Part shown: positions 7,274 through 44,983 of the stretch, one piece after another
Position numbering within the stretch: position 1 is the stretch's first letter
Layout of the letters: each line of letters opens with the position of its first letter
Source: a virus
Taxonomy: Duplodnaviria > Heunggongvirae > Uroviricota > Caudoviricetes
Strand: one strand, 5' to 3'
Length of the DNA stretch: 64,000 bases
Virus record (IMG/VR): IMGVR_UViG_3300037119_002976
Coordinates: 1-64,000 of that record
Position numbers and translations under genes: made by a program
The notes under the pieces: model-generated
Databases searched by the model: none
The model's input: only the letters and a program-made list of their open reading frames with translations
What the model was told of the DNA's origin: nothing

Positions 7274-8898
7274 AAGAACGCGAGGAGATGCGCCAGGCCT
7301 TGCGCCAGGAGATCGTCGATCGCAAGGTCTCGGATGAGGCCGAGCGTCTCGGCCAGTCGTTGAGTGCCTTCGTCAGGGAGGCGTGGCCGCACGTCAAGAA
7401 GCACGAGCAGTACCGGCACAACTGGCACCTCGACGCGATCAACATTCACCTGGAGGCCGTGAGCGCGGGCGAGATCCATCGCCTGCAGATCTGGGTCCCG
7501 CCGGGTTCGATGAAGTCGCTGTCGGTGTCCGTCTTCTGGCACGCCTGGGAGTGGACGACGCGGCCGTGGCTTCGCTACTGGTCGGCCTCGTACGAGACCC
7601 GCCTGGCGGGACGTCTCTCGGCGATGGCCCGCGACCTCATGCTGGAGCGCTGGTACCAGGAGCGCTGGGGCCCGCTCTTCAAGTTCAACCGCGACGCCGA
7701 GCACTACTACGGCAACGACCAGGGCGGCACGCGCCTGGCGACGTCACCGGACTCGTCAGGAACCGGCGAGCACGGGCACCGCATCATCATCGACGACCCG
7801 ATCAACGCAAAGGACGCCGACGCCACCTCGAAGTCGACGCTTGACACCGTGAATGGGTGGTTCGATGGCACCGTCCCCTCGCGCGGTCTCGACGGAGTCC
7901 TCTCGCCTGACGGCGATATCATCGACCACGCCCGCGTCATCATCATGCAGCGCCTGCACGAGGACGACCTCGCTGCTCACGCCCTCGAGAACGATCGCGA
8001 TTACGTCGTCCTGTGCATCCCGGAGCGCTACTACGCGGGCCATCCGTTCGCTTACCGCGGACAGGGCGGGCACACCTCGACTGAGGACCTCGGCTCGACG
8101 TTCGGGCCCGGAGATCCGCGCATCGAGGACGAGCTGCTGTGGCCGGATCGCCGTTCCGAGAAGGCATCGGATGCGCTCAAGGCCCAGCTGAAGCATCGCG
8201 CCGCGGGTCAGCTCCAGCAGATGCCCGCGCCGAAGGAAGGCCAGTCGCTCCTGCGCTCGTGGTGGCGCTTCTACGATCCGAACCTCTTCAACGACGTGAA
8301 GCGCCGCCCCCGCTGCTCGATGGTCGTTCAGTCGATCGACTGCCCGCTCAAGGACAAGCAGACGAACGACATGATCTCGATCCAGGCCTGGGGCTGCAAG
8401 GGCGCCGATCGCTACCTGATCGACATCCGCACGTCGCACATGAGTTACTCGCAGGCCAAGCGCGCCGTCATCGAGCAGGCGAGGTACGTCCGGGCGATGT
8501 ACCCGAAGGCTCGCCAGAAGATCCTCATCGAGAACGGCGGCTACGGGCCCGAGCTCATCGTCGACCTGAAGCGCATCCTTACCGGCGTCGAAAAGGTCAG
8601 CCCAGCCTCGGAGGGCGACAAGGAGATCCGCGCCGACTCGGCTGCCGACGACCTGCAGGCGGGCAACGTCTGGTTGCCGGGGATCGGCGCCGGCGCCGAT
8701 ACGACACTGGGCCCGGCGGGCACCGTCTCCAAGGACATCAACGACTTCATCGAGTCGTGCGCGGTCTTCCCCCACGGCAAGCACGACGACGATGTCGACG
8801 CCTGGTCGCAGGCGATGAACTGGCTGCGCTCGCAGATCATCATTCCCGGTCGCACTGGCAGTGCCTACAAGGGGATGCGCAAGCGGGTGGCGGCATGA
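7270..8898 (+). CDS. terminase large subunit (about 542 aa)
   Basis: N-terminal ATPase with P-loop-like WVPPGSMKS (Terminase_6-like) and a C-terminal nuclease-like region with acidic residues. GTG 7270 in GTGA overlap; ATG 7288 is an alternative start. Confidence 0.8.
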   Translation: MKEREEMRQALRQEIVDRKVSDEAERLGQSLSAFVREAWPHVKKHEQYRHNWHLDAINIHLEAVSAGEIHRLQIWVPPGSMKSLSVSVFWHAWEWTTRPWLRYWSASYETRLAGRLSAMARDLMLERWYQERWGPLFKFNRDAEHYYGNDQGGTRLATSPDSSGTGEHGHRIIIDDPINAKDADATSKSTLDTVNGWFDGTVPSRGLDGVLSPDGDIIDHARVIIMQRLHEDDLAAHALENDRDYVVLCIPERYYAGHPFAYRGQGGHTSTEDLGSTFGPGDPRIEDELLWPDRRSEKASDALKAQLKHRAAGQLQQMPAPKEGQSLLRSWWRFYDPNLFNDVKRRPRCSMVVQSIDCPLKDKQTNDMISIQAWGCKGADRYLIDIRTSHMSYSQAKRAVIEQARYVRAMYPKARQKILIENGGYGPELIVDLKRILTGVEKVSPASEGDKEIRADSAADDLQAGNVWLPGIGAGADTTLGPAGTVSKDINDFIESCAVFPHGKHDDDVDAWSQAMNWLRSQIIIPGRTGSAYKGMRKRVAA

Positions 8899-9098
8899 AG
8901 TTCCTCGGCCGCGGTCTCTCGAAGTCCGATGTGGACGCGCTCGAACGGTCGATCCCGACAAACGATCCGATCGCGCAGCGCAACCCGGAGCGCCCGCTCT
9001 ACTCCGGCACCCACGAGGAGATCGAAGAGGCACTCGTGCCCTGGCTTCGGCGGCGAAGGAGAGCAGCTCGCCAACGCTCTCGTCGGTCGATCTGGTGA
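8895..9098 (+). CDS. hypothetical protein (67 aa)
   Basis: ATGA overlap with the terminase stop; Arg-rich C-terminus; TGA 9096-9098 overlaps the next GTG. Confidence 0.4.
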   Translation: MKFLGRGLSKSDVDALERSIPTNDPIAQRNPERPLYSGTHEEIEEALVPWLRRRRRAARQRSRRSIW

Positions 9099-9781
9099 TC
9101 GCGATCCTCGTCCCGGTCCTCGGTAGACCGCAGAACGCACAGCCACTCGTCGACTCGATTAAGCAGGCGACGACGGTTCCTCACCGCATCCTCTTCCTCT
9201 GCACGCCGTTTGACGTCGATGAGATCAATGCCGTTCACGAGACCGGCGCCGACATCCACAACGTCCGCTGGGAAGCCGGTCCCGGTGACTGGGCGAAGAA
9301 GATCAACCAGGGCTATCGCCTGACGGAAGAGCCCTTCATCCTTCTCGCCGCCGATGACCTTCGCTTCCACACTGGCTGGGACACCGAGGTGCTCCGCGTG
9401 GCCGAAGAGACGGGCGCTGGCGTCATCGGCACGAACGATCTCGGTAACGCGACGGTCATGCGCGGGCTCCACTCGACGCACCCCGTCGTTCGTCGCTCCT
9501 ACGTGGACGAGTACGGGACGATCGACGAGCCCGGCAAGGTCCTGCACGAGGGCTACCGCCATCAGTGGGTCGACACCGAGCTCATCGCCACGGCGCAGAT
9601 GCGTCACCAGTGGGCGTTCGCGAAGGGATCGCATGTCGAGCACATGCACCCGTTCTGGAAGAAGGGAAAGATGGACGCGACGTACGAGAAGGCACTCTCA
9701 ACTCCGACCGAGGACTTCGCGCACTTCAACCAGCGCAAGCACCTGTGGTCCCGAGCAGCGATGAAAGCGAGGTCAGCATGA
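9095..9781 (+). CDS. glycosyltransferase, GT-A fold (228 aa)
   Basis: GTGA overlap start. N-terminus VIAILVPVLGRP is typical of GT2-like enzymes; DxD-type FILLAADDLRF; the motif is DxD-type. Confidence 0.6.
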   Translation: MIAILVPVLGRPQNAQPLVDSIKQATTVPHRILFLCTPFDVDEINAVHETGADIHNVRWEAGPGDWAKKINQGYRLTEEPFILLAADDLRFHTGWDTEVLRVAEETGAGVIGTNDLGNATVMRGLHSTHPVVRRSYVDEYGTIDEPGKVLHEGYRHQWVDTELIATAQMRHQWAFAKGSHVEHMHPFWKKGKMDATYEKALSTPTEDFAHFNQRKHLWSRAAMKARSA

Positions 9782-10107
9782 ACGACGTCAAGATCCACGT
9801 GAAGGGGATCGAGGGATCGAGCCTGGTCGAGAAGGACGGTGTTCCGGCGGCGCTCTTCGGAGCTGTGCTCGAAGTCGACGGCCACATCATCGAGACGGCC
9901 TTCAAGATCGAGGTCACCTTCGAGGAGGGCTTCGTCACGGTCACCCCTCACTTCTACCCCGGCACGTTCACCGTCGTCTCGCACGACAAGGAGTCCTGGC
10001 ACGAGTTCGCGGCGAGGATGGAGCTCGAGTACAACCAGAAGAAGACCGCTCGCGATGGACTTGGCCGGGCACTCGCCCGCGTGCTCAATGAGGATGGAGA
10101 TGGGTGA
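9778..10107 (+). CDS. hypothetical protein (109 aa)
   Basis: ATGA overlap at 9778; beta-rich sequence. Confidence 0.5.
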   Translation: MNDVKIHVKGIEGSSLVEKDGVPAALFGAVLEVDGHIIETAFKIEVTFEEGFVTVTPHFYPGTFTVVSHDKESWHEFAARMELEYNQKKTARDGLGRALARVLNEDGDG

Positions 10108-10330
10108 GCTGATCGAGTTCCCGCTGCATCGTCGCTTCCAGAACGATCCACCACCCGACTCCGTGCTCGATGTCGTCGCGCAAACGGACGAGTGCAGCGA
10201 GTACATCCATGTCTTCGTCGAGGTGCCTGGTCGCTGCAAGTGCGGCGAGAACGAATGGACGGAAGACCACACTCTGGAGCCCGAGGGCATCGGCATCCAC
10301 CACGTCTTCGACCCACCGCCCGCCTCCTGA
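10088..10330 (+). CDS. hypothetical Cys/His-containing protein (about 80 aa)
   Basis: Three in-frame ATGs at 10088, 10094 and 10100 overlapping the upstream stop; CSEY...CKCGENEW; TGA 10328-10330. Confidence 0.4.
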   Translation: MRMEMGELIEFPLHRRFQNDPPPDSVLDVVAQTDECSEYIHVFVEVPGRCKCGENEWTEDHTLEPEGIGIHHVFDPPPAS

Positions 10331-10484
10331 CTTCTCAGGACTGAGAAGACGGCCCGCTCCGGGGTTGGTTCGCCGGGGCCGCAAAGATTCCGAGGAGTCT
10401 TTGCACGCTGGCCAAGTCAGCTTCTCACCCACACGCCGAGCGGACCGTCCACCTACCAGTCCGGCTCGCGTGAGTGAGTTCTTA

Positions 10485-10557
10485 TGCCCGCCCCGGGACT
10501 CGAACCCGGAAACCTCCGTTTCTGAGACGGAGTGCTATGCCGATTCGCTAGACGGGC
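10485..10557 (-). tRNA. tRNA, candidate anticodon CAG (Leu-type anticodon on a class-I, short-variable-arm scaffold)
   Basis: Reverse complement gives acceptor GCCCGTC/GGCGGGC, T-arm CCGGG-TTCGAGT-CCCGG and anticodon arm TCCGT-CTCAGAA-ACGGA with U33 and A37. The variable region is only 5 nt; no CCA. Confidence 0.55.
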
Positions 10558-10559
10558 AA

Positions 10560-10629
10560 TGGGGCCCCGAGGAATCGAACCTCGTCCTGTCGGGTTACAG
10601 CCGAGCATGCGCCACTACACCAGGACCCC
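10560..10629 (-). tRNA. tRNA, candidate anticodon GUA (Tyr-type anticodon on a class-I scaffold)
   Basis: Reverse complement gives acceptor GGGGTCC/GGGCCCC, T-arm CGAGG-TTCGATT-CCTCG and anticodon loop CTGTAAC, with a 4 bp stem plus a C.C pair. It lies 2 nt from the neighbouring tRNA. Confidence 0.5.
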
Positions 10630-10830
10630 GTGGGGGCTAGGGAAGGCGCAGATACAACCGGCGAACCACGGCGCGAGCGTATCGAGGAATGGGCGCCGGC
10701 GCAACCGTGGAAGCCTCCCGAAGGAGTGTCCCGTCCGCAGTTAGCGTCGGCGCCCGCATGCAGTCTAATCCGACCCGAGGGTGTATATTTACCTCTGTCC
10801 CGTTCGTAATCGAACCGATGGAGGTTTGTG

Positions 10831-11799
10831 ATGGGTTGGATCGTTCTCACGGTGCTCGCCGTGATCCTGTTCTGGGTTGGAATCGGTATCTGGGTCTACG
10901 CACGCAAGCGCGATGCGGTTCTCGAGGCCGAGGGCCGCACATCTTCAGATCTCATGCCATCCGGGCTCGGGCTCTACGCCGCGATCGGGGTCGGCATCTG
11001 TTGGGTCTTCATGTCCTTCTTCTTCATGGTCCACACGGTGGGCCAGCGGGAGGTGGCGATCGTCTACAACTTCTCCGGCACGATCGCGGGGAAGAAGGAT
11101 CCCGGAGTCGTGACCACGTTCCCCTGGCAGCACGTTCGCAAGGAGAACGTCGGCATCCAGCACACCGAGTACGACTTTGGCGCGAACAACTCCGCTGTCT
11201 CCAAGGACCAGCAGAAGATCTTCGCGAAGCTGGCGGTCAACTACCAGATCGACTCCGTGAACGTCGTCGACCTGTACGAGCGGGTCGGGCCCTCGTGGAA
11301 GGACATCATCATCGAGGCCAGGGTGCCGCAGGTGTTCAAGGAAGTCACTGCGACGTTCCCGACGCCGAAGATCACCGAGGAGCGGGCCGAGCTGCGCGAG
11401 CAGACTCGCACGCGCCTCATCGCCGAGCTCAACCAGTACGACATCAAGGTGGTCGACGTCTTCATCACGAACCTCGGCTTCTCCGATCAGTACTCGCAGG
11501 CGATCGAAGAGAAGCAGCAGCAGGTTCAGGATGCGCAGCGTGCCGAGGCCAAGGTCAAGCAGGTCGAGGCCGAAGCTCGCCAGAAGGTCGCGCAGGCCGA
11601 GGGTGAGGCGAAGTCGAACGTCGCTCGCGCTCGTGGTGACGCTTCTGCCAACCGTCTGCGTCAGCGCTCGCTGACCCCACGCCTGATCCAGTGGGAGGCA
11701 ATCCAGAAGTTGAACCCCAATGTCCAGATCATCGTCTGCCCGCCGCAGTCGGTCTGTATCCCGAACTCGGCTGTCGTGCCGAACCCAGGAGGCAACTGA
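10831..11799 (+). CDS. SPFH / band-7 (stomatin/prohibitin/HflK-C family) membrane protein (322 aa)
   Basis: RBS GGAGG 6 nt before ATG 10831; N-terminal TM helix; SPFH core REVAIVYNFSGTIAGKKDPGVVTTFPW...; long C-terminal coiled coil (EEKQQQVQDAQRAEAKVKQVEAEARQK). Confidence 0.75.
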   Translation: MGWIVLTVLAVILFWVGIGIWVYARKRDAVLEAEGRTSSDLMPSGLGLYAAIGVGICWVFMSFFFMVHTVGQREVAIVYNFSGTIAGKKDPGVVTTFPWQHVRKENVGIQHTEYDFGANNSAVSKDQQKIFAKLAVNYQIDSVNVVDLYERVGPSWKDIIIEARVPQVFKEVTATFPTPKITEERAELREQTRTRLIAELNQYDIKVVDVFITNLGFSDQYSQAIEEKQQQVQDAQRAEAKVKQVEAEARQKVAQAEGEAKSNVARARGDASANRLRQRSLTPRLIQWEAIQKLNPNVQIIVCPPQSVCIPNSAVVPNPGGN

Positions 11800-11897
11800 T
11801 GATCCTTCCGACGAACGTCGATGCTCTGCTCAGGGACATGCAGAAGCTCGTGCAGACCGCCACTCGTCTGCTCACAAAGCTGGAGGAGAAGCTCTGA
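11799..11897 (+). CDS. small helical protein (32 aa)
   Basis: ATG 11799 overlaps the SPFH stop (TGATG); TGA 11895-11897 overlaps the next ATG. Confidence 0.3.
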   Translation: MILPTNVDALLRDMQKLVQTATRLLTKLEEKL

Positions 11898-12229
11898 TGC
11901 TCACGAAGCTCCGCGCCAGCCTGGACGATCCGTGGACTAAGGGCCTCGTCATCGCGGCAGTCGTCCTCGCCATCCTCGCCATCGTCCTCCTCCTCGCCGG
12001 GTGCGGGGAGGAGGGGGCGGAGGGAGCCAGCGGCGGTTGCACCGGAACGGTCACGAAGACGTACACGGAGTACAAGGCCGGGGTCGGGATTCAGTCCGGC
12101 AGTGTCACCATCCCGACCGGAAACACGCGCTACTACATCGCCGTCAAGCGCGACGACGGCACCTACTGCTCACAGCGACTCGACAAGAGCGAATGGCTCG
12201 CCGTCACGGAAGGAGACACCTATGGGTAA
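11897..12229 (+). CDS. putative lipoprotein with beta-rich C-terminal domain (110 aa)
   Basis: RBS GGAGGAG before ATG 11897; TM/signal segment and lipobox LLLAG-C; beta-strand-rich C-terminus of about 70 aa (possible NfeD-like OB fold). Confidence 0.55.
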   Translation: MLTKLRASLDDPWTKGLVIAAVVLAILAIVLLLAGCGEEGAEGASGGCTGTVTKTYTEYKAGVGIQSGSVTIPTGNTRYYIAVKRDDGTYCSQRLDKSEWLAVTEGDTYG

Positions 12230-12368
12230 GAGATTCCTGAGAGCGCTCGCGGAGTTCTTCAACCCGCGTGACTGGGTCCCCACGTTCCCGATCGTGCGCA
12301 AGCACGACCCGGACGCTCAGGGCTACCAGACGTTCGGGGAAGCGCTGCGCGGGTTCAAGAAGGACTGA
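12222..12368 (+). CDS. hypothetical protein (48 aa)
   Basis: RBS GGAAGGAGA before ATG 12222; overlaps the upstream stop. Confidence 0.4.
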   Translation: MGKRFLRALAEFFNPRDWVPTFPIVRKHDPDAQGYQTFGEALRGFKKD

Positions 12369-12370
12369 CC

Positions 12371-12604
12371 ATGTGGCCCTTCAGGAAGAAGAAGAGGCGC
12401 TCAAGCGACCCACCCGCCTCCGGGATCGCCGGTGACGTCGCTGACGCGATCATCATCAACGAGATCTTCGCTCCTGGCTCGACCGCGGCTGCGCTCGGTG
12501 CTGTCGCGGATGCGGCTGGAGCAGTGGGCGGCGCGGCCGTCGATGTGGCGGGTGCCGTCGCCGAAGTCGCTGGCGAAGCTCTGGACGGAGGGTTCGATGG
12601 CTAG
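12371..12604 (+). CDS. hypothetical Ala/Gly-rich protein (77 aa)
   Basis: ATG 12371 lies 3 nt after the upstream stop; TAG 12602-12604. Confidence 0.4.
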   Translation: MWPFRKKKRRSSDPPASGIAGDVADAIIINEIFAPGSTAAALGAVADAAGAVGGAAVDVAGAVAEVAGEALDGGFDG

Positions 12605-12728
12605 GGTCATGGAGCTCTTCGTGATCGTCAACGCGGCCTGCGGCATCGCGGCCTTCGTGATCGCGAAGGGGATGATCAAGCGAGCGAAGCGCAAGATCAC
12701 CGGAGAGGACGAGCGATCCGGCCCTTGA
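12597..12728 (+). CDS. small membrane protein (43 aa)
   Basis: ATG 12597; TM helix LFVIVNAACGIAAFVIA; TGA 12726-12728 inside the TTGA overlap with the next gene. Confidence 0.3.
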   Translation: MARVMELFVIVNAACGIAAFVIAKGMIKRAKRKITGEDERSGP

Positions 12729-13288
12729 CCGAAGCTCTCCTTCTCGCCCCGCACGGCGACGACGAGACCCTCTTCGCAGCGTTCACGTGCATGCGCTACG
12801 GCAAGCGCATGCACGTGATCGTCTGCACCCAGGACGCCGATCCGGCGATCCGCGGCGTTCGCTCGATGGAGACGAAGAGAGCCATCAGTCTCCTCGGTTG
12901 CACCCATCACGAGTGGCCCATGTCGGCCGACGAGCCCAACTGGGATTCCGCGAAGGAATGGCTGGGAGCGTGGGCCTCCGACAAGCTGTTCGCGACGAGA
13001 ATCGAGAAGGTGTTCGCGCCGGCGATCGAAGTCGAGGGCCACGAGCAGCACAATGCTGTCGGACTCCTAGCCCAAGATGTCTTCGGTGATCGCGTCACGC
13101 ACTACCTCACCTATGGCCCTCGTGGAGAGCGCTCCCAGCACGGCGTGGAGGTCGCACCCCCGACGGCGCACGAGATCGTTCGCAAGCTACGAGCTCTGTC
13201 CTGTTACGAGTCGCAGATCACGAACCCTTGCTCCATGCCCTGGTTCTTCGATCTGCTTGACATGAGAGAGTGGTGGGCGGCGGAATGA
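12725..13288 (+). CDS. PIG-L / LmbE-family de-N-acetylase (187 aa)
   Basis: TTG 12725 in TTGA overlap; N-terminal signature LLLAPHGDDETL (the HPDDE motif of the PIG-L family) and conserved His residues downstream. Confidence 0.65.
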   Translation: MTEALLLAPHGDDETLFAAFTCMRYGKRMHVIVCTQDADPAIRGVRSMETKRAISLLGCTHHEWPMSADEPNWDSAKEWLGAWASDKLFATRIEKVFAPAIEVEGHEQHNAVGLLAQDVFGDRVTHYLTYGPRGERSQHGVEVAPPTAHEIVRKLRALSCYESQITNPCSMPWFFDLLDMREWWAAE

Positions 13289-13686
13289 GCGGTCGCGAGC
13301 TGGTTGTCACCCGTCACGCGGTCGCGGCCTACTCTCGACGGCGCAACGACGCACGCTCACTGCGCCTGCTCGCCGCTGTCAACTGGAACCCAGACATCGT
13401 GCGCAGGTCGTACGGCGCGGAGACCGCCGACAGGCTCATCATCTTCTACAACGAGCTCGAGCGCGAGATCGCCGAATGTGTCCAGTACGCGCTGGACAAC
13501 GGACTCACCGAGAGGCGCAAGCCTCCAGGCTTCGTTCTCTACAGGCGCAAGCGCGATGCCTTGCCCGATGGGCAGAGGTTCGTTCGCTGTGAAGAGGACT
13601 CGCCGTACGGCTTCATCGTTCAGCGCGACCCCGGCGGGAAGGACGTTGTCCTGACGACCATCTCTCGCGTGGGGGTGCGGAAGTGA
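13285..13686 (+). CDS. hypothetical protein (133 aa)
   Basis: ATGA overlap start; TGA 13684-13686 overlaps the next GTG. Confidence 0.45.
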   Translation: MSGRELVVTRHAVAAYSRRRNDARSLRLLAAVNWNPDIVRRSYGAETADRLIIFYNELEREIAECVQYALDNGLTERRKPPGFVLYRRKRDALPDGQRFVRCEEDSPYGFIVQRDPGGKDVVLTTISRVGVRK

Positions 13687-14629: not shown

Positions 14630-14805
14630 GGAACTTCATCGTCTTGCGGAAGATCGACTCCAGTGGAGTCTGGCAGGAGGTCACAGCGCTGCGGGCGTGG
14701 TCTCGGAAGGGGGCGCTGCGTCAGGTCGAGGAGGCGGGCACGCAGTTCGGCCAGTACGTCGCCGTCCCGCTCAGGCAGTGGCGTGTCATGGACATACCGC
14801 TGTGA
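14626..14805 (+). CDS. hypothetical protein (59 aa)
   Basis: ATGA overlap at 14626 and GTGA overlap at 14802-14805 bracket this ORF between two genes; frame differs from the 14589 ORF. Confidence 0.35.
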   Translation: MRNFIVLRKIDSSGVWQEVTALRAWSRKGALRQVEEAGTQFGQYVAVPLRQWRVMDIPL

Positions 14806-36412: not shown

Positions 36413-36456
36413 GCGATCCACGCCGGATGCAGATCTATAGTTCGCACTCGAGTTAG
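36409..36456 (+). other. 15-codon relic ORF (MSDPRRMQIYSSHSS) marking a duplication junction
   Basis: ATG 36409 in ATGA overlap. Its first 13 nt (ATGAGCGATCCAC) are identical to the start of the GT gene at 38257. Its last 10 codons parallel the collagen gene C-terminus MRIYSSHSN (33283-33315). Confidence 0.4.
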
Positions 36457-36458
36457 AG

Positions 36459-38260: not shown

Positions 38261-38976
38261 GCGATCCACAGATCATCATCGGCGGCGACCTCGGGTTCCA
38301 CAACCGCGAGCTCAAGCGCTCGAACGAGAGGCTGAAGAAGGGGAAGCAGTACCGCGATCTCTCGACCGTCTGCGTCATCCCCACGCGAGGCCTGATCCCC
38401 GCGCGTGTCGTCGAGAGCTGGATGGGACTGATCGCCCCGATGAACAACGCCTTCCTGCGCATCTTCGTGCAGGGCATGGAGGTCGGGGACGCCTACAACC
38501 AGGCGGTCGAGTTGATCCTCGGGCACGAACAGATCCGCGACTTCAAGTACCTGCTCACGCTCGAGGAGGACAACGTGCCGCCTCCCGACGGCCTGCTCAA
38601 GCTCTACGAGTCGATGGACGACTACCACGCGGTCGGCGGTCTCTACTGGACGAAGGGTGAAGGCGGCCAGCCGATGATCTACGGCGACCCGAAGGGCATC
38701 CTCGCGTTCCAGCCCCAGCAGGTGCAGGTCGACACCGTCCAGGAGTGCAACGGCCTCGGGATGGGCTTCACGCTCTTCCGCATGGAGCTCTTCAGGGACG
38801 AGAAGATCGAGAAGCCCTGGTTCAAGACCGTGCAGGAGTGGACTCCGCATGGAGGCACCGCGATGGGCACGCAGGACCTCTACTTCTTCGGGAACGCCCG
38901 ACGCGCCGGATACCGTGTCGCCTGTGATACGCGAGTGAAGGTCGGTCATGTGGACCAGGACGGAATGGTTTGGTGA
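38257..38976 (+). CDS. glycosyltransferase, GT-A fold (239 aa)
   Basis: ATGA overlap start (MSDPQ...); LSTVCVIPTRGLIP N-terminal strand; acidic motif LEEDNVPPP; beta-rich C-terminus. Confidence 0.65.
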   Translation: MSDPQIIIGGDLGFHNRELKRSNERLKKGKQYRDLSTVCVIPTRGLIPARVVESWMGLIAPMNNAFLRIFVQGMEVGDAYNQAVELILGHEQIRDFKYLLTLEEDNVPPPDGLLKLYESMDDYHAVGGLYWTKGEGGQPMIYGDPKGILAFQPQQVQVDTVQECNGLGMGFTLFRMELFRDEKIEKPWFKTVQEWTPHGGTAMGTQDLYFFGNARRAGYRVACDTRVKVGHVDQDGMVW

Positions 38977-39176
38977 CTCTCACCGATCGAATCTTCTGGC
39001 AGGAGTTTCGATACACGCGAGCCCTGTACGGATCGCGCAGACGCTGGTTGGAGGTGAAGCTCTGGCCGATCGAGCGGTTCTTCCGTAGGCGCTGCTGCGC
39101 CAAGCACGGCCACGATCATTTCGTGGGGCCGCCTATGACATGGAAGACTTACTGCCGGAGATGCGGAGCGGCATGA
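38973..39176 (+). CDS. small zinc-ribbon protein (67 aa)
   Basis: GTG 38973 (or TTG 38970) overlaps the upstream TGA; CCAKHGHDH...CRRCG. Confidence 0.35.
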   Translation: MTLTDRIFWQEFRYTRALYGSRRRWLEVKLWPIERFFRRRCCAKHGHDHFVGPPMTWKTYCRRCGAA

Positions 39177-39772
39177 GCACGAAGACGCAGGCAGTGGAGA
39201 GCAACGGCAAGGACGTGAAACAGCAGATCTTCTCGCCTCGCCGCCTGGACATCGCCTGCGGCCAGAACAAGCAGCAGGGCTTCAAGGGCATCGACATCGC
39301 TGGCGACGCGGACATCGTCTGGGACCTGAACGAGATCCCCTGGCCGATCCGCACGAGCTCGGTGCGCGAGGCCTACTGCGCCCACTACGTGGAGCACATC
39401 CCGCACGAGCGACCAGGCTGGGACCGCGACGGCTGGTTCCGCTTCTTCGACGAGCTCTACCGCGTCATGGCCGGCGGTGCGACTGCTCAGTTCATCCACC
39501 CGTACTCGCGGCACGACCGTGCCTTCTGGGACCCGACGCACGTGCGCTTCATCAACGAGACGACGTGGTACTACCTCGACAAGCAGTGGCGGGAGATGCA
39601 GGGGCTCGACCACTACCCCGTCGAGTGCGACTTCGAGATCATCACGGTCGACGCGATCGGTCTCTCCAACGAGTTCATGTCGCGCAGCGCGGACACTCAG
39701 AACTTCGCGCGGGCGCACTACTTCAACGTGATCCCCGATCTGCGCGCCCTTCTCAAATCACGGAAAGGCTAG
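39173..39772 (+). CDS. class I SAM-dependent methyltransferase (199 aa)
   Basis: ATGA overlap start; motif I LDIACGQNKQQGFKGIDI; acidic motif II region. Confidence 0.6.
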   Translation: MSTKTQAVESNGKDVKQQIFSPRRLDIACGQNKQQGFKGIDIAGDADIVWDLNEIPWPIRTSSVREAYCAHYVEHIPHERPGWDRDGWFRFFDELYRVMAGGATAQFIHPYSRHDRAFWDPTHVRFINETTWYYLDKQWREMQGLDHYPVECDFEIITVDAIGLSNEFMSRSADTQNFARAHYFNVIPDLRALLKSRKG

Positions 39773-39774
39773 TG

Positions 39775-40506
39775 ATGGCCGACTCCACTTCTACGCTTGG
39801 CGGCATGCAACCCGACTCCATCCTCGGCTTCATCACCGGGAGCTCGGTCAACTTCTGGTTCATGCACTCGGTGCTGAACCTGTTCAAGAACGACCCGGCC
39901 AATCGCTTCAACTCGGACTGGCTGCTCGTCTTCGGGCCGTACATCCACGCGAACCGCAACCAGCTCCAGGACCAGTTCATGGACACGGGGCGCGAGTGGC
40001 TGCTGTCGGTCGACAACGACATGGTCTTCACGCCTGGTGACGTCTTCGCGCTGTACGACGAGGCTGCGAAGCGCGGCCCCGGTGTGTACGCCGGCACGTA
40101 CGTTCTCGAGAACGGATTCCAGGTCTGCGGACTCTGGAACGACGACGAGCCGATGGTCTACCACAACCTCGTCCAGCTCCCCGAGAAGCCGACCGAGATC
40201 GGCGTCGTCGGCATGGGCTTCACGCTCATTCACCGCAGCGTCTTCGAGGCGATCGGGCCAGGAGCGTTCTGGCCTGTCAACGAGCAGCGCTCGACCGGAG
40301 AGGACTTGTCCTTCTCCTGGCGCGCACGCGAGGCGGGCTTCACACCGATTCTCGTCCCAGCCTGCAACCCAGGCCACCACAAGACGATGGTGGTCTACCC
40401 GCATGGCTCGATCCGCAACGCGATCGGAGAGGACATCAATCTCGTCGAACTCGACGAGGAGCTCAAGGAGCTCAACCGCGAGATGATGGAGGAGGTGAAA
40501 AGCTAA
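39775..40506 (+). CDS. glycosyltransferase, GT-A fold (243 aa)
   Basis: ATG 39775 is 3 nt after the upstream TAG; DxD motif LLSVDNDMVF; C-terminal GEDLSFSWRAREAG is typical of GT2-like enzymes. Confidence 0.65.
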   Translation: MADSTSTLGGMQPDSILGFITGSSVNFWFMHSVLNLFKNDPANRFNSDWLLVFGPYIHANRNQLQDQFMDTGREWLLSVDNDMVFTPGDVFALYDEAAKRGPGVYAGTYVLENGFQVCGLWNDDEPMVYHNLVQLPEKPTEIGVVGMGFTLIHRSVFEAIGPGAFWPVNEQRSTGEDLSFSWRAREAGFTPILVPACNPGHHKTMVVYPHGSIRNAIGEDINLVELDEELKELNREMMEEVKS

Positions 40507-40841
40507 TGGCTGCTTACAATCCAGCTGCCCTCGTGCCTGCGATGACGTCGGTCACTTCGACCGCGGCGTACCAGACCTCGACGGCGGCGAACACGGGCGT
40601 CCTGCGCACGATCCACGCGCAGAGCTCGGCGGCGTCACACTCGATCACGGTCACGGCGGGTGGTCAGGACGCGGCGGCGACCCGTCTGTTCGATGCGTAT
40701 GCGTTGACGGCGCTCGTCCCGGCGATCTTCAACGGCTGGTGGGTCGTGCCCGCGACCGTCGTGTCGTGGCTCGGCTACAAGTCGGATACGGCAACCGGGT
40801 CGATCGTGATGCTGACGATCGGTGGCTACATCTATAGCTGA
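40506..40841 (+). CDS. Ala/Thr/Ser-rich small protein (111 aa)
   Basis: ATG 40506 overlaps the upstream TAA; low-complexity hydroxyl-rich sequence ending ...TIGGYIYS. Confidence 0.4.
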   Translation: MAAYNPAALVPAMTSVTSTAAYQTSTAANTGVLRTIHAQSSAASHSITVTAGGQDAAATRLFDAYALTALVPAIFNGWWVVPATVVSWLGYKSDTATGSIVMLTIGGYIYS

Positions 40842-40862
40842 CAGTTCAGGTATGCTGCCCAA

Positions 40863-41354
40863 GTGGGTGACGAACGCGCTTGGGCAGCAGGCCTGTTCGA
40901 CGGCGAAGGCTCAGTTGGCTGTTACGGAAGACCGGACGGCCGGAAGCGACGAGGGAGCTACTGGCACATTCGCCTCAGTGTTGCCCAGCACCACGATCGC
41001 GAAGTGCTCGACCGCTTCGTCGCTGCTGTCGGAGTTGGGAAGGTCTACGGCCCGTACCAGGGCCACAAGTACAGCGTTCAGGTCGTCGGGAAGAACGCCG
41101 AGATCGTCATCCAGGCGATCTGGCCGTGGCTCTCTGGGCCGAAGAGAAAGCAGATCGAGGCGGCGAGGGCGAAGTTCGAGGCACGCGGAGAGTCGGCCAA
41201 GGGTGGCCGCGTCTGTCCTCCCGACTGCCAATGTGGTCGACACAAGTGGAAGACCGAGGACGTGTTGCCGGAGATTCAGCTCAAGAGAGAGAAGCAACGT
41301 GAGTACCAGCGCCGCCATCGAGCGAAGGAGAGACATGAAACACCACACGCCTGA
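40863..41354 (+). CDS. LAGLIDADG homing endonuclease, single-motif (163 aa)
   Basis: GTG 40863; motif WAAGLFDGEGSVG near the N-terminus; basic C-terminus. Confidence 0.7.
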   Translation: MGDERAWAAGLFDGEGSVGCYGRPDGRKRRGSYWHIRLSVAQHHDREVLDRFVAAVGVGKVYGPYQGHKYSVQVVGKNAEIVIQAIWPWLSGPKRKQIEAARAKFEARGESAKGGRVCPPDCQCGRHKWKTEDVLPEIQLKREKQREYQRRHRAKERHETPHA

Positions 41355-41583
41355 GCGCTGGTGGGCGATCAAGATCCTCCGTGAGGAGAAGAGGTTGACG
41401 TACAAGCAGATTGGGGATTTCTTCGACCTCTCCACCGAGAGAGTTCGGCAGATCTATCTTCATCCCCAGCCTCCCGCTCGACCTCTGGGTGGGAACTATC
41501 TCTTCCCCTCTGGACGGCACGAGTCAGAGTCATACGCCTTGGGCGTCTACCCATTGATGAGGCGCCATGACCACCATCTCTAG
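41335..41583 (+). CDS. small HTH DNA-binding protein (82 aa)
   Basis: RBS AAGGAG 4 nt before ATG 41335; RLTYKQIGDFFDLSTERVRQI resembles a sigma-70 region-4 / LuxR-type HTH. Confidence 0.5.
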   Translation: MKHHTPERWWAIKILREEKRLTYKQIGDFFDLSTERVRQIYLHPQPPARPLGGNYLFPSGRHESESYALGVYPLMRRHDHHL

Positions 41584-42121
41584 GGAGAGCAACGCGGTCA
41601 GCACCGTGACGACGTTCGACACGGACATCGTCGTTGACATCGGCTGCTGCAGCTATCAGCGCGGCACTCGAGTCGAGGACTCGATCCACACGCTCATCAA
41701 GCGCTTCAAGCCGTCAGTCCTCTTCGGCTTCGATCCTCACCCCGGTCTGCCGGACGCGGTGGGTCAGGTGTACGGCACCACCGTCATCACCTCGCGGCGA
41801 GCTGCCTGGACGCACGACGAGGAGGTGGGCCTCTGCCTCCAGGGCAACTGCACCCATGTCGACCTCGATGAGGAACAGAGGGCCAAGGCCTTCGACATCG
41901 CTGCCTGGGTCAGGACTCTGCCCGAGGCTCGGATCGTGCTCAAGGTCGACGTCGAGGGAGCCGAATACGTGCTCCTGCCGCATCTGATTCGTCATGGCCT
42001 GATGGACAGGTTCTCACACGTGCTGGTCGAGTGGCACACGGGTGAGTACGCGAACGGGCACGAGTCCGATCGCGACGAGATCCTCGCTGGGATCCCCTGC
42101 CCGGTGGAGGTCTGGCAATAG
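41567..42121 (+). CDS. FkbM-family methyltransferase (184 aa)
   Basis: ATGA overlap start; motifs IVVDIGCCSYQRG and LKVDVEGAEYVLLPHL. Paralogue of 14802-15299 with the same motif order. Confidence 0.65.
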   Translation: MTTISRESNAVSTVTTFDTDIVVDIGCCSYQRGTRVEDSIHTLIKRFKPSVLFGFDPHPGLPDAVGQVYGTTVITSRRAAWTHDEEVGLCLQGNCTHVDLDEEQRAKAFDIAAWVRTLPEARIVLKVDVEGAEYVLLPHLIRHGLMDRFSHVLVEWHTGEYANGHESDRDEILAGIPCPVEVWQ

Positions 42122-42207: not shown

Positions 42208-42693
42208 GTGAACCGCTTGCTCGAGATCGGCGTGAGCAAGAGGTCTCTGGTCACCTGGCTGGAGTGCTTCCCTGACGCCGAGGTCGTCGGCCTCGACACC
42301 GAGCCGAACGGCCCGACCAACACCGACGACATCGCCGGCATCGAGAACGACCGGCTGACATTCGTTCTGGGAGATCAGACCGACGTCGATCTCCTGGAGT
42401 CTCTCGGTGCTTTCGACGCCATCTTCGACGACGGTGGCCATCACTCTCGCCAGCAGATCGCGAGCTTCATGACGCTCTTCCCGCGCATGAACTCAGGCGG
42501 CTGGTACTTCATCGAGGACATCCACTGCTCGTACATGGCGGGCTATCAGGACGACGGCCTCACCACGATGGACTTCATTCAGTTTCTGCTCGACGACATG
42601 CACTCCCGCTACATGACGCCGCCGGGGACACAAGAGTGGCCGATCAGCGAGGTACGCTTTGTCGATTCCGTGGCTGCCTTCCGACGATCATGA
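42208..42693 (+). CDS. class I methyltransferase, TylF/CmcI-like (161 aa); start uncertain
   Basis: GTG 42208 is the first start codon, but the frame is open back to 42046 and the upstream residues look protein-like. LEIGVSKRSLVTW...FDDGGHHSRQQIASF matches the macrocin-O-MT / CmcI family. Confidence 0.55.
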   Translation: MNRLLEIGVSKRSLVTWLECFPDAEVVGLDTEPNGPTNTDDIAGIENDRLTFVLGDQTDVDLLESLGAFDAIFDDGGHHSRQQIASFMTLFPRMNSGGWYFIEDIHCSYMAGYQDDGLTTMDFIQFLLDDMHSRYMTPPGTQEWPISEVRFVDSVAAFRRS

Positions 42694-42971
42694 CCGAGCT
42701 TCGCGAGACTGATGGAGTCCCGATCTGGCTCCCGAATCACCAGGAGCCGCATCTGGTGAAGAGAGAGCGCCGGGCCTACGACTCAGAGGACGACGGCGGT
42801 CAGGCGAAGGCGCTGATCGAGACGGGCCTCTTCGAGACCGGGTCAGGTTTCGTGTTCCGCTGCCCGCTGTGTGGGCGTCAGGAGCGAAACGACCAGAGGA
42901 TGGAGCCCATGTGCACGGGGCCGGGTTGGACGGACGATCACCCGCCCGAAGTAATGGTCTGCGTGGCGTGA
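42690..42971 (+). CDS. hypothetical Cys-containing protein (93 aa)
   Basis: ATGA overlap start; CPLCG...C zinc-ribbon-like. Confidence 0.4.
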   Translation: MTELRETDGVPIWLPNHQEPHLVKRERRAYDSEDDGGQAKALIETGLFETGSGFVFRCPLCGRQERNDQRMEPMCTGPGWTDDHPPEVMVCVA

Positions 42972-44095
42972 GCTACACGCTCCACGTCGTCTCCCTCCCG
43001 CACACGACGCTCACCGAGAAAGACGCGCAGTGCGCGTACTCGATGAAGGTGCTCAAGTTCGTGCCGATGATGCAGGACCAGGGCTGCAAGGTCATCCTGT
43101 ACGGGCCCGACCAGATCGACTGCTCTCCCGACGAGCACGTCGTCGTCACGACCGAGGCTGATCGCCTGCGCTGGGGATACGGAGGGCCCACGGGCTACGA
43201 CACCACGAAGGCGTTCGAGTGGGACGGCTCCCAGCCGTACTGGTTCGAGTCCTGTCAGCGAACGATCGACGCGATGCGCGAGCGCATGCCGAAGGATCGG
43301 CGCGGGCACTACATCTGCCTCGCGACGTCCACGCAGGCGGCCATCCCGGATGCGGTCGCAGGGCCGAGCTGGAACGCGCCGATCACGCTCGAGTGGGGCG
43401 TCGGCTACATCGGGGTCGACATGCGCTCCTGGCATGCCTACGAGTCCTACGCCTGGATGCACCAGGTCTACGGTATCCGCAACATCGGCGACGGCCGCGC
43501 CTTCGACCAGGTGATCCCGAACTTCTTCGACGTCTCGCAGTTCTCGGTCGCCAAGAACCCGAGCGCCGACTACGTCCTCTTCATCGGGCGCTGCATCATG
43601 CGCAAGGGGCCGCACGTGGCCGCCGAGATCGCGAAGCGCATCGGTCTGCCGCTCGTGGTCGCCGGGCCGGGCGCTGTCGAGGCTGGCGGCGTCCTGCACA
43701 CACAGGAGGGCGTGCCGATCACGGGCGAGGTCGACTACGTCGGATCCGTCGGGTTCGCCGAGCGCAACGAGCTCATGTCGAACGCCGCCGCGACGATCGT
43801 GCCCACGCTCTACATCGAGCCCTTCGGTGGCGTCGCTGTCGAGGCGATGCTCGCCGGCAGTCCGGTGATCGCATCGGACTGGGGCTCGTTCACCGAGATC
43901 GTCACGCCAGACGTGGGCGCACGCTTCCGCACGCCGCTCCAGGGCGCCGCGGCCTTCGAGGAGGTTCAGAAGTTGAAGCGCCCGGCTATCCGCAAGGCAG
44001 CGAAGGCACGGTTCTCACAGGAGGCCGTCGGGCCGATGTTCATGCGCTGGTTCGACCAGCTGGACCTGCTCTGGGAGAAGGGATGGGATCAGTGA
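42968..44095 (+). CDS. glycosyltransferase family 4 (GT-B, group 1) (375 aa)
   Basis: GTGA overlap start; C-terminal Rossmann domain with FIGRCIMRKGPHVAAEI and EPFGGVAVEAMLAGSPVIASDWG (E-x7-E GT4 signature). Confidence 0.8.
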   Translation: MSYTLHVVSLPHTTLTEKDAQCAYSMKVLKFVPMMQDQGCKVILYGPDQIDCSPDEHVVVTTEADRLRWGYGGPTGYDTTKAFEWDGSQPYWFESCQRTIDAMRERMPKDRRGHYICLATSTQAAIPDAVAGPSWNAPITLEWGVGYIGVDMRSWHAYESYAWMHQVYGIRNIGDGRAFDQVIPNFFDVSQFSVAKNPSADYVLFIGRCIMRKGPHVAAEIAKRIGLPLVVAGPGAVEAGGVLHTQEGVPITGEVDYVGSVGFAERNELMSNAAATIVPTLYIEPFGGVAVEAMLAGSPVIASDWGSFTEIVTPDVGARFRTPLQGAAAFEEVQKLKRPAIRKAAKARFSQEAVGPMFMRWFDQLDLLWEKGWDQ

Positions 44096-44292
44096 CGGTC
44101 GCTCCAGTGAATACGGCGGGCTCGCGCATCTGGACGTGCGATGACTGCGGCCAGAGGTTTACGTGGACGAGCGCGAGTTACTGGTTCGGGTCGTACAAGG
44201 ATCTCGATGAAGGGAACTGGTCGACGGTTCAGGTCTACTGCGGCTGTCGCCCGATGCCAGAAGGCGAGAGAGTGCGCGAGGTGGAGATGTGA
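44092..44292 (+). CDS. small zinc-ribbon protein (66 aa)
   Basis: GTGA overlap start; CDDCG...CGC. Confidence 0.4.
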   Translation: MTVAPVNTAGSRIWTCDDCGQRFTWTSASYWFGSYKDLDEGNWSTVQVYCGCRPMPEGERVREVEM

Positions 44293-44405
44293 CCAAGGTG
44301 AAACTAAAAGTGGTGAGCATCAAGACCACAAAGGTCGATACGCGCAAGTGGCCTGACGACTTTCGCGGCTTCGGCACGAACGTCCGCCCGAAGAAGCAGA
44401 AGTGA
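44289..44405 (+). CDS. small Lys-rich protein (38 aa), speculative
   Basis: GTG 44289 overlaps the upstream TGA; TGA 44403-44405 overlaps the next GTG; low-GC island. Confidence 0.25.
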   Translation: MTKVKLKVVSIKTTKVDTRKWPDDFRGFGTNVRPKKQK

Positions 44406-44983
44406 GCTTCGACGAAGCCGAGTGGTGGGCGGACTGCGCGAACACGCTCCACGAGGAGCAGAAGCAGCTCGTGTACGCGACGCGCATGGGCCTGATCGCG
44501 AACTGGTCATGCGCGCATCCACCTGAGTTCGACATCGAGGGACGCTCGGTGCTCGACATCGGCGGCGGCCCCGTCTCCCTCCTACTGAAGTGCGTGAACC
44601 GAGGGCGCTGCGTGGTAGTCGACCCGAGTGACTTCCCACTGTGGGTGTTCGAGCGCTACCGCCACTGCAAGATCGACTTCTGGCACGGGCCGGCGGAGGA
44701 GATCACCGACGAGAAGCTGCACTTCGACGAGGCCTGGATCTACAACGTGCTCCAGCACGTCGGCGACCCGGCCGAGGTGATCGAGAGAGCTCGCAAGCAT
44801 GCGAGCACCGTCCGCGTCTTCGAGTGGATCGACATCGACCCGTACCCCGGTCACCCGCATCGTCTCGAGCGCGAGGGGCTCGACGAGTGGCTTGACGGTC
44901 ACGGATTCGTCGCCCAGCTCAACGAACGTGGCTGCGTCGGGACGGCGTACTACGGCGTGTTTCAGGGTGCGCTGACCGACTAG
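44402..44983 (+). CDS. class I SAM-dependent methyltransferase (193 aa)
   Basis: GTGA overlap start; motif I VLDIGGGPVSLL; acidic strand VVVDPSDF. Confidence 0.6.
   Translation: MSFDEAEWWADCANTLHEEQKQLVYATRMGLIANWSCAHPPEFDIEGRSVLDIGGGPVSLLLKCVNRGRCVVVDPSDFPLWVFERYRHCKIDFWHGPAEEITDEKLHFDEAWIYNVLQHVGDPAEVIERARKHASTVRVFEWIDIDPYPGHPHRLEREGLDEWLDGHGFVAQLNERGCVGTAYYGVFQGALTD

Follow-up and report, generated by a model that had tools for sequence, protein, structure and literature searches.

Glycan-enzyme genes within the structural region

The 64,000-nucleotide stretch analysed here (IMG/VR record IMGVR_UViG_3300037119_002976, positions 1 to 64,000; hereafter the window) belongs to an uncultivated tailed phage, has a GC content of 64% and carries, among its virion-structure genes, two islands rich in genes for putative glycan-synthesis enzymes. 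Our gene model, based on GC content at third codon positions (GC3), gave coordinates that match those of an earlier, sequence-only reading of this DNA, and the structural framework was fixed by PHROG and Pfam searches. Along the plus strand, this framework comprises the large terminase (TerL, 7255-8898; Pfam Terminase_6C, 29 bits), which forms the left edge of island 1, the portal (19754-21598; phrog_776 at 8e-83), a MuF-like head protein (21600-23147; phrog_859 at 8e-71), the major capsid protein (MCP, 25092-26903; phrog_777 at 1.5e-66), which is about 35% identical to the capsids of Arthrobacter, Gordonia and Microbacterium phages, a major-tail-like protein (phrog_792) with a conserved phrog_779 protein (27044-28523, both from PHROG), a giant collagen-like fibre and a head-tail adaptor (45004-46083; phrog_783 at 4.8e-45), which forms the right edge of island 2; the tape measure protein (TMP, 47775-51989, from a profile search), Dit and a lysin also belong to it.

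The sequence-only reading had counted at least eight glycosyltransferases (GTs), six methyltransferases (MTs) and one deacetylase within 8895-44983, placed between terminase and portal and between the fibre and neck genes, on the strand of the structural genes. Both the inventory and its placement were borne out by Pfam, PHROG, AlphaFold2 (AF2)/Foldseek and family-profile searches: the 9.1-45.0 kb region holds seven GT-A-like enzymes and one GT-B/GT4 enzyme, six S-adenosylmethionine (SAM) MTs (two FkbM paralogs, one similar to macrolide-sugar O-MTs and three of class I) and one PIG-L/LmbE de-N-acetylase. All 15 are encoded on the plus strand, that of the structural genes, and take up 9.9 kb. 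Six of them (those starting at 17017, 18113, 12725, 42968, 42208 and 44402) reach curated Pfam cut-offs, and the rest were assigned by PHROG, fold or family profile. The GT-A-like sequences combine profile or fold matches with acidic, DxD-type motifs (DD, DDD, DND, DAD, DD, EED and DND), which places them in the GT-A group, the assignment of the two in island 2, GT_f and GT_g, being only probable.

Island 1 begins with GT_a (9095-9781), a GT-A-like protein that matches phrog_14945 ('glycosyltransferase', E 1.7e-11) and, weakly, Pfam GT2; its profile matches in the Protein Data Bank (PDB) are likewise weak and are all to GT-A enzymes, while among deposited phages it has relatives in Arthrobacter jumbo phages only (22% identity). 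The PIG-L/LmbE-family protein (12725-13288) scores 29.9 bits against the Pfam PIG-L (PF02585) cut-off of 28.2. A phmmer search with this single protein found no match in the PDB, whereas the family profile matches diacetylchitobiose deacetylases, LmbE and BshB, and H10, D12, D13, H106 and H109 are invariant among 14 orthologs. We take these His and Asp residues, by analogy with MshB and LmbE, to be metal-site ligands; judged by the PF02585 match and the conserved His/Asp...HxxH site, the protein is a member of the PIG-L/LmbE family. MT_a (13683-14210) is probably a class I SAM MT: its Methyltransf_23 match (E 2.6e-4) falls below the cut-off, but it possesses an LDYGCG motif and its PDB profile matches are nearly all SAM MTases (best E 9e-4).

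Two paralogous FkbM-type MTs had been proposed, one in each island, and this relation holds: FkbM_a (14802-15299; weak matches to PF05050 and TIGR01444) and FkbM_b (41567-42121; TIGR01444, E 2.7e-4) are 37% identical (blastp, E=1e-25) and match the same TIGR01444 region. The window proteins score 17.7-21.4 bits against cut-offs of 22.7 (PF05050) and 37.7 (TIGR01444), an NCBIfam search added only weak FkbM matches, and the FkbM family profile found no match in the PDB. PF05050 is, however, the sole family matched by their relatives (15 of 20 members), and the FkbM protein of the related locus L004 reaches 43 bits. GT_b (15387-16043) was assigned through its AF2 model (predicted local distance difference test, pLDDT, 89.4), for which Foldseek returned the GT-A fold enzymes EXTL2, EXT1/2, TarP and SpsA and the PBCV-1 capsid GT A64R; at the sequence level its GT2 match amounts to only 16.8 bits, D83-D84-D85 are invariant in the family, and the family has at least 895 metagenomic homologs. 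The last two enzymes of the island, GT_c (17017-17724; Pfam Glycos_transf_2, 39.1 bits) and GT_d (18113-18859; Pfam Glyco_tranf_2_4, 45.5 bits), are GT2 glycosyltransferases, and a small DUF1360 membrane protein (19096-19434, +; Pfam, 24.2 bits) lies just upstream of the portal.

A further enzyme, GT_e (23107-23760), sits between the MuF-like and capsid genes and belongs to the core of the lineage. It had been offered as a possible GT-A enzyme, and it matches phrog_854 ('glucosyltransferase', 7e-19). By phmmer it is homologous to Che8 gp110 (1.2e-7), Corndog gp38 (7.6e-7) and Sixama gp92 (range to 4e-6), and hhalign against the gp110/gp38 family gave 98.1% probability (E 6.7e-14, 192 columns) with the shared motifs VLQDDxIVC and SLVEHxDD. 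Among cultured phages it comes closest to the right-end GTs of cluster F mycobacteriophages. By these profile comparisons GT_e is a member of the Che8 gp110/Corndog gp38 family, which supports virion glycosylation. Virion glycosylation by phage-encoded enzymes was reportedly demonstrated only in 2023 (Freeman et al.); a few mycobacteriophages achieve it with small cassettes, and it is said to shield their particles from antibodies. One report names gp110 and gp38 as two GTs essential for capsid glycosylation (PMC12363180), and two others describe, for Che8, Rita and cluster O phages, glycosylated capsids and tail tubes as well as a glycan shield (PMC11256854, PMC11600133). Corndog has an O-MT and three GTs in the interval from portal to protease/capsid, and Sixama has two GTs between its adaptor and its tail genes; hence, GTs inside a structural module have precedent.

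The parallel to mycobacteriophage cassettes drawn in the sequence-only reading thus stands for GT_e and for the position of the Corndog GTs, and it does not extend to the other enzymes, none of which is orthologous to a Che8 or Corndog enzyme: phmmer searches (--max) of the full set of window proteins with Che8 gp108 and gp109 and Corndog gp35 (O-MT), gp36 and gp37 produced no match below E 0.05. The GTs and MTs that accompany GT_e come from other families. What the systems have in common (Che8 gp108-110, Corndog/cluster O gp35-38) are phage-encoded GTs and an O-MT with predicted virion targets and, in Corndog, GTs between portal and capsid. They differ in that three to four enzymes are present there and 15 here, that a PIG-L deacetylase, FkbM MTs, an MT similar to MycE/TylE and a GT-B enzyme occur in the window in addition, and that it has fibre-linked cassettes, which have not been described for mycobacteriophages.

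Island 2 follows a collagen-like fibre of 1572 aa (28597-33315, +; Pfam Collagen, 390 bits), which we see as the chief candidate for modification by the island-2 enzymes. About 970 aa of this protein are G-X-Y repeats; in 191 of their 324 triplets (59%) the Y position is Thr, and the collagen stretch gives way to a Ser/Thr-rich domain of 'ITLSQ/TISIS' repeats. Next come four putative fibre-associated proteins, v1-v4 (33326-38260, +), of which v1 has a polysaccharide-lyase-fold domain (Pfam Polysacc_lyase, 130 bits), v2 and v4 are LamG-like paralogs (E 2e-12) with an 'FDGVDD' motif, and v3 is of unknown function; from their domains, v1, v2 and v4 could be depolymerases or lectin-like fibre proteins. 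A homolog of v1 (55% identity) also occurs within the island-1-type cassette of another contig (L047, at about 3272).

The first pair of island 2 is formed by GT_f (38257-38976; phrog_12406 GT at 1.1e-6) and the class I SAM methyltransferase MT_b (39140-39772), for which we consider 39140 a more likely start than the 39173 given previously. MT_b has an AF2 model (pLDDT 84.7) whose Foldseek matches are SAM MTases, among them two sugar O-MTs, RebM and AtmM, and it has 333 homologs. The GT_f family profile found a single match in the PDB, the GT A197 of Sulfolobus turreted icosahedral virus (STIV; E 0.0016), and no relation between GT_f and the GT_b family could be detected. GT_g (39775-40506; phrog_34859 GT at 2e-6) aligns with the GT_f family (hhalign, 85.8%) and shares its DND/GMGFTL motifs, so that both are, on sequence grounds, probable GT-A-like glycosyltransferases. 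It is followed by u10 (40506-40841, +), a small conserved protein without an assigned function, which accompanies GT_g and FkbM_b and has homologs in two other loci (L003, L088). Downstream of FkbM_b lies MT_c (42208-42693), which scores 26.3 bits with Methyltransf_24 (PF13578), a value equal to the cut-off, and matches phrog_21658 (MT, 2.8e-20). Its earlier label as a TylF/CmcI-like enzyme has to be replaced, as PF13578 is the only one of the relevant families that it matches (neither PF05711 nor PF04989 was found); its nearest solved relatives are PDB 3ssm (1.2e-10) and the demethylmacrocin O-MT 8ia9 (7.4e-9). MT_c thus resembles macrolide deoxysugar O-methyltransferases (MycE/TylE-like), which would fit sugar O-methylation. 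The island ends with u11 (42690-42971, +), a small Cys-rich protein conserved upstream of GT4 (and present in L076, L077 and L088), the GT4-type GT-B glycosyltransferase itself (GT4, 42968-44095) and its frequent partner MT_d, a class I SAM methyltransferase (44402-44983; Methyltransf_12, 31.1 bits). With 54.9 bits for Glycos_transf_1 (PF00534) against a cut-off of 26.4, and with PDB profile matches to 7fg9 (3.5e-31), tetrahydrobiopterin (BH4) glucosyltransferases and PimA, GT4 is by both lines of comparison a GT-B/GT4-like enzyme.

The enzyme genes had been described as translationally coupled to the structural genes, with which they are co-oriented and closely packed. Within island 1, 11 of 16 junctions overlap or abut, as do several in island 2, and v4 overlaps GT_f by 4 bp; the edges are looser: TerL is followed by a gap of 196 bp, and one of 319 bp precedes the portal. 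A hydropathy scan found transmembrane (TM) segments only in an SPFH protein, u3, u4 and DUF1360, and one in the MuF-like protein; none was found in any GT or MT, which indicates soluble enzymes. Moreover, no genes for sugar-nucleotide synthesis are present in the 64-kb window, so that the sugar donors would come from the host. This modifies the proposal that the glycan is synthesised by the phage itself.

Conservation of the cassettes and their linkage to fibre genes

Scanning IMG/VR with the GT_b family alignment yielded 26 loci of 60-70% GC, 22 of which carry TerL, GT_a, PIG-L, MT_a, FkbM, GT_b, GT_c, GT_d, DUF1360, portal, MuF, GT_e and MCP, the cassette being colinear in 20 of these 22 diverged viral contigs. 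TerL orthologs stand upstream of the cassette, and GT_e is syntenic in the relatives. GT_c is present in all 22 cassette loci, GT_d in 21, DUF1360 in 18 and MT_a in 13, and GT_a lies immediately 3' of TerL in 16 of them (and also in L003, L005 and L007). The median identities in these loci amount to 40-50% for the enzymes, compared with 34% for the portal, 38% for MuF, 41% for TerL and 42% for MCP. Judged by such values, the island-1 cassette is under selection at the level of the core virion genes and is not a recent moron. The conserved seven-gene cassette is found only in uncultivated phages; tblastn with GT_b and PIG-L gave no match among 50,697 deposited phage records.

A further group of relatives (L003-L007), identified through the capsid protein (44-59% identity), retains only GT_a and GT_e of the enzymes, and the same slots hold other glycan enzymes: extra GT2s, a nucleoside diphosphate (NDP)-sugar epimerase/dehydratase, an FkbM MT, a Stf0-type sulfotransferase and a GT2 directly upstream of the adaptor. 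Since different glycan enzymes occupy the same positions, the two slots are lineage-wide 'glycan slots' with variable content. A donor-related enzyme, the NDP-sugar epimerase/dehydratase, is carried by a relative of the window phage. The sulfotransferase (49 bits), the FkbM MT (43 bits) and the epimerase/dehydratase (148 bits) were located at L004 496-2447 and L005 3459-4358, and sulfated or deoxy-sugar glycan variants are possible in these relatives. The order of the phrog_792 and phrog_779 genes in the window is the reverse of that in the capsid-level relatives L003, L004 and L005.

The island-2 enzymes have different associations. An MT_b alignment led to 18 loci, 17 of which contain the GT_f-MT_b pair, and in 11 of the 18 a homolog of fibre residues ~1167-1485, without collagen repeats, stands just upstream of the pair; several MT_b loci are ordered p792 ... 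fibre-like protein, GT_f, MT_b, adaptor. For GT4, 91 loci with a GC content of 36-70% were collected from IMG/VR and JGI metagenomes, 67 of them at least 5 kb long. Taking a run of at least eight G-X-Y triplets as the mark of a collagen-like protein, we found such an open reading frame (ORF) near GT4 in 50 of the 67 longer loci, as compared with 4 of 41 controls, which were taken from the head modules and fibre slots of a single lineage (Fisher p=2.8e-11). It usually lies about 1 kb from GT4 on the same strand, and Thr fills 57% of Y positions over 5,072 triplets of the GT4-locus collagens. The phages represented are as different as cyanomyoviruses and high-GC siphoviruses. MT_d adjoins GT4 in 19 of 80 metagenomic loci, and in L011, L012, L018, L019 and the cyanophage L022 (45% identity).

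Among deposited phages GT4 has relatives only in Synechococcus myoviruses. Synechococcus phage ACG-2014f has the order collagen protein, gp016, gp017 (the MT_d homolog, 45% identity), GT4 homolog, 2-oxoglutarate (2OG)-Fe(II) oxygenase and tail fibre, gp016 and gp017 both being annotated as hypothetical. The oxygenase (ACG-2014f gp019, at L010 13067-13660), directly after the GT4 homolog, is reminiscent of collagen prolyl/lysyl hydroxylases and of Mimivirus L230; an oxygenase of this kind was not seen in the window. Based on a narrow literature check, the link between GT4/MT and G-X-Thr collagen appears to be undescribed so far.

A relative of island 2 is found on an 83-kb contig, L019 (IMGVR_UViG_3300005836_000011, module 7071-11794), which carries, in this order, a giant collagen fibre, GT_g (90% identity), u10 (93%), FkbM_b (78%), u11 (82%), GT4 (59%), MT_d (65%), the adaptor (42%) and TMP (47%); its adaptor, TMP and Dit are 42-48% identical to those of the window. 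Given that island-2 genes of this contig are 78-93% identical and its structural genes only 42-48%, the glycan module was apparently exchanged horizontally in recent times, and further partial copies of this type of module exist in L076 and L088. By gene content and linkage, island 2 is pieced together from mobile gene pairs that are tied to fibre domains. The toolkit had been called exceptionally large; the island-1 cassette, however, recurs in at least 20 diverged contigs and the island-2 cassettes are found elsewhere. As for the number of GTs, a cyanomyovirus with 13 has already been published (PMC12801897).

Candidate virion targets and competing readings

Given these observations, we lean, with some reserve, towards the view that the two islands constitute a modular, phage-encoded system that glycosylates the virion proteins of the phage. 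The soluble enzymes would be active late in infection in the cytoplasm of the host, from which they would take sugar nucleotides and SAM, and glycosylation would take place before or during virion assembly. As its homology to gp110 and gp38 suggests, GT_e may glycosylate capsid and/or tail proteins in a first step, for which MCP and the phrog_792 and phrog_779 proteins are candidate acceptors. In a second step, suggested by conserved synteny, GT_a, PIG-L, MT_a, FkbM_a, GT_b, GT_c and GT_d may build and tailor a glycan, and a plausible chemistry would be transfer of N-acetylhexosamine (HexNAc), de-N-acetylation to an amino sugar and methylation. The same succession of a GT and a PIG-L-type enzyme operates in the mycothiol, bacillithiol and glycosylphosphatidylinositol (GPI) pathways. 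In a third step, to which gene linkage across many loci points, the island-2 pairs may modify the giant fibre: GT4 and MT_d would act on the Thr residues of the G-X-Thr collagen stalk, GT_f and MT_b on the Ser/Thr-rich repeat domain, and GT_g, FkbM_b and MT_c would supply further sugars and O-methyl groups. That the fibre is a target of GT4 and MT_d we propose tentatively, as an assignment that may well prove wrong. The outcome would be several distinct methylated glycans on different parts of the virion. We speculate that they might stabilise a collagen helix free of hydroxyproline, or shield or tune the virion surface.

Comparable arrangements are known outside these phages. The glycan clusters of giant viruses (chlorovirus PBCV-1 A064R/A061L, the fibril clusters of Mimivirus/Megavirinae) consist of 6-33 genes and are clade-specific and exchangeable, and Mimivirus L230 acts on a collagen-like protein (PMC9614988). 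These systems resemble the window in their cytoplasmic GTs and class I sugar O-MTs, the methylated glycans on capsid or fibrils and the glycosylated collagen-like proteins, and PBCV-1 A64R is among the structural neighbours of GT_b; they differ in having eukaryotic hosts, genomes of at least 300 kb and, usually, their own sugar-nucleotide synthesis, whereas the window phage has a prokaryotic host, a genome of ~101 kb and no donor-synthesis genes that we could see, and its enzymes are interleaved with head and tail genes. Another analogy is the exosporium protein BclA, a Bacillus collagen-like G-X-Thr glycoprotein (PMC6222408; Daubenspeck 2004 via PMC9614988). BclA bears methylated rhamnose/anthrose oligosaccharides, O-glycans with O-methylated deoxysugars, and has GTs and MTs encoded nearby. 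Its hair-like, G-X-Thr-rich collagen stalk with dedicated GTs and MTs resembles the predicted fibre system, but BclA belongs to the surface of a bacterial spore and not to a virion, so the analogy is one of mechanism only. Finally, marine T4-like cyano- and pelagimyophages possess a GT-rich 'host recognition cluster' (PMC7029224), and S-SCSM2R carries 13 GTs (PMC12801897). They share with the window several GTs among the tail-fibre genes and homologs of GT4 (34% identical) and MT_d (45%) near, and two genes 3' of, a collagen-repeat protein; unlike the window phage, they are myoviruses of ~200 kb without the island-1 cassette.

Several points weigh against a virion-glycosylation system. The enzyme families, synteny, conservation and linkages described above are established, whereas the substrates, the order of the steps, the biological role and all the targets are deduced from sequence. 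GT_e alone is related to an experimentally studied virion-glycosylation enzyme. Synteny inside one lineage may mirror descent and not function; the same concentration on one lineage applies to the controls for collagen linkage, while the GT4 loci are in part phylogenetically non-independent and some of the metagenomic ones are perhaps not viral. Furthermore, collagen-like and accessory genes both tend to gather in tail-fibre regions, and the islands have also received tRNAs and SPFH, HNH and helix-turn-helix (HTH) genes, which implies that the slots are general insertion hot spots as well. Finally, the papers on pelagi- and cyanomyophages read the GT-rich fibre regions as modifying the O-chain (lipopolysaccharide, LPS) or cell wall of the host, or DNA (PMC7029224, PMC12801897).

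Following that published reading, the enzymes would alter the cell-wall or surface polysaccharides of the host and so block superinfection, prevent adsorption to debris or change the receptor. We consider this unlikely, even if it is the strongest of the alternatives. It accords with the presence of TarP, a wall-teichoic-acid GT, among the structural neighbours of GT_b, with the frequency of PIG-L/LmbE and FkbM enzymes in bacterial cell-envelope pathways and with the polysaccharide-lyase-fold protein beside island 2. However, a flippase, a polymerase and a lipid-carrier GT are all missing, and TM segments were found in none of the enzymes; the genes lie within late virion operons and, unlike typical conversion morons, are conserved over 22 loci to the same degree as portal and capsid genes. 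The GT_e family is experimentally tied to capsid glycosylation, and the linkage of GT4 to collagen across a GC range of 36-70% is hard to reconcile with the wall chemistry of such different hosts. Prophage Gtr/TarP systems, which act on the envelope of the host, consist of one to three genes close to lysogeny modules and need lipid carriers or membrane partners. The window has in common with them the phage-encoded GT-A enzymes and the likeness of GT_b to TarP, but it lacks the membrane components of a Gtr-type system (a flippase, a polytopic GT and a TM-anchored lipid-carrier GT, no TM segment being found in any GT or MT), and its genes belong to a late structural operon.

Alternatively, all 15 enzymes could make one large branched, methylated and partly de-N-acetylated oligosaccharide on capsid and tail, in the manner of an enlarged Che8-type cassette, which is close to what the sequence-only reading envisaged. 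The kinds of enzymes agree with Che8 and Corndog (GTs and an O-MT), a GT of the gp110/gp38 family is present and the number of GTs would permit a long glycan. Branching, however, is not readable from gene counts, and the cassettes have separate histories and linkages: island 1 is clade-wide, whereas GT_f-MT_b, GT4-MT_d and GT_g-u10-FkbM_b-u11 each occur independently elsewhere beside different fibre domain types, and the L019 genes of island 2 (78-93% identical, against 42-47% for its structural genes) point to recent modular exchange. Because different cassettes are tied to the head module and to two types of fibre domain, several glycans are to be expected rather than a single branched one, and we regard the latter as improbable. 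Hypermodification of DNA, in which the GTs, MTs and deacetylase would decorate hydroxymethylated bases before packaging, seems most improbable of all: phage GTs that build mono- to oligosaccharides on 5-hydroxymethylcytosine (5hmC) are described in a preprint (bioRxiv 10.1101/2023.12.21.572611), the cassette adjoins the packaging genes (terminase, portal) and ~37 kb of the 101-kb genome lie outside the window, but no hydroxymethylase, TET/JBP-type or thymidylate-synthase-like gene was found within the 64 kb, the only DNA-type methylase (N6_N4_Mtase) belongs to the distant leftward early region, the island MTs are of small-molecule or sugar type (FkbM, MycE/TylE-like, RebM-like fold) and without DNA-target domains, the GT_e homologs act on capsid proteins, and the GT4-collagen linkage has no relation to DNA.

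Returning to glycosylation of the virion, we may formulate a wider proposition, which we put forward as a conjecture with doubtful prospects of holding in every part. A large uncultivated high-GC phage clade would possess a core pathway of seven genes (four GTs, two MTs and one HexNAc de-N-acetylase) between terminase and portal; virion glycosylation would be far more elaborate and widespread than cassettes of three to four genes; and GT4, with or without an MT, would be dedicated to O-glycosylation of Thr in G-X-Thr fibres from marine cyanomyoviruses to soil-type siphoviruses. If this were true, many collagen-like tail fibres of phages would be BclA-type glycoproteins, the GTs in host-recognition clusters of marine phages would modify fibres and not the host, and environmental phage clades would devote at least 10% of their structural region to complex, methylated, amino-sugar-containing glycans by means of exchangeable cassettes dedicated to particular virion parts. 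The GT4/MT-collagen link, in particular, offers a testable hypothesis of how phage collagen fibres without hydroxyproline may be stabilised or diversified; it bears on the unexplained GTs in tail-fibre regions of marine phages and on the engineering of host range and immune recognition of phage fibres.

Inserted genes and the source contig

The islands are not purely glycan-related, as they also hold two tRNAs, an SPFH protein with membrane partners, an HNH gene, DUF1360 and an HTH gene. The tRNA pair in island 1, tRNA-Leu(CAG) and tRNA-Tyr(GTA) (10484-10629, -; ARAGORN and Rfam), is not glycan-related and is opposite in strand to all surrounding genes; an ORF at 10170-10640 overlaps both tRNAs, has an Arg/Ser/Pro-rich, alternate-frame composition and was rejected as a gene. 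The tRNA pair is followed by the SPFH/Band-7 membrane protein with two small membrane proteins (10828-12728, +; Pfam Band_7, 80.6 bits; TM segments), of which the one after SPFH has a lipobox-like LLLAGCG and a weak DUF7489 match and the second a single TM segment. This group is a window-specific insert, missing from the cassette relatives and not glycan-related, with a possible membrane or exclusion function. Between GT_b and GT_c lies an HNH endonuclease-like insert (16040-16633, +; weak Pfam HNH_3), which looks like a mobile, homing-type element; its homologs (47-62% identity) stand at different positions in L012, L027, L034 and L046. Island 2 contains a small HTH protein similar to sigma-70 region 4 (41335-41583, +; Pfam Sigma70_r4, 25.5 bits), with its own start and ribosome-binding site. 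The long N-terminus of the corresponding ORF (40822-41583) has an alternate-frame composition and was discarded in favour of 41335-41583 as the likely gene; a terminator-like hairpin (41472-41494) falls within it. Promoter- and terminator-like sites in general showed no excess over shuffled sequences, a scan that is little informative for such hosts, and no Pfam or PHROG function was found for the island ORFs u1, u5-u9, u10 and u11.

At the DNA level, searches against deposited phages (INPHARED, 50,697 records) gave nothing useful beyond their sole match, 52 bp of the terminase gene. Contigs from JGI and Logan metagenomes encode identical proteins, the longest being 100,931 bp, and the extension past the window ends adds small genes, RtcB and similar only. 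The genome-collection contigs that contain the GT_b cassette (L073-L075) are binned in metagenome-assembled genomes (MAGs) called Acidobacteriota (two) and Actinomycetes (one); they are probably phage contigs that were assigned to the wrong bins, so that these bins do not identify the host phylum. Between GT_e and the capsid gene the window has an insert of 1.3 kb (23760-25092) that is absent from relatives and comprises a minus-strand gene of 188 aa (24243-24809; phrog_4652, of unknown function, E 3e-16) and ~480 bp without a convincing coding signal. Upstream of the terminase, tRNA-Ile(GAT) and tRNA-Met(CAT) are encoded at 5224-5482 (+). At the right end of the window, the leftward early region carries the fragment of a DNA N6/N4 methylase (63475-63936, -; 53 bits), and a weak Macro-domain match was noted at 60314-60763 (-).

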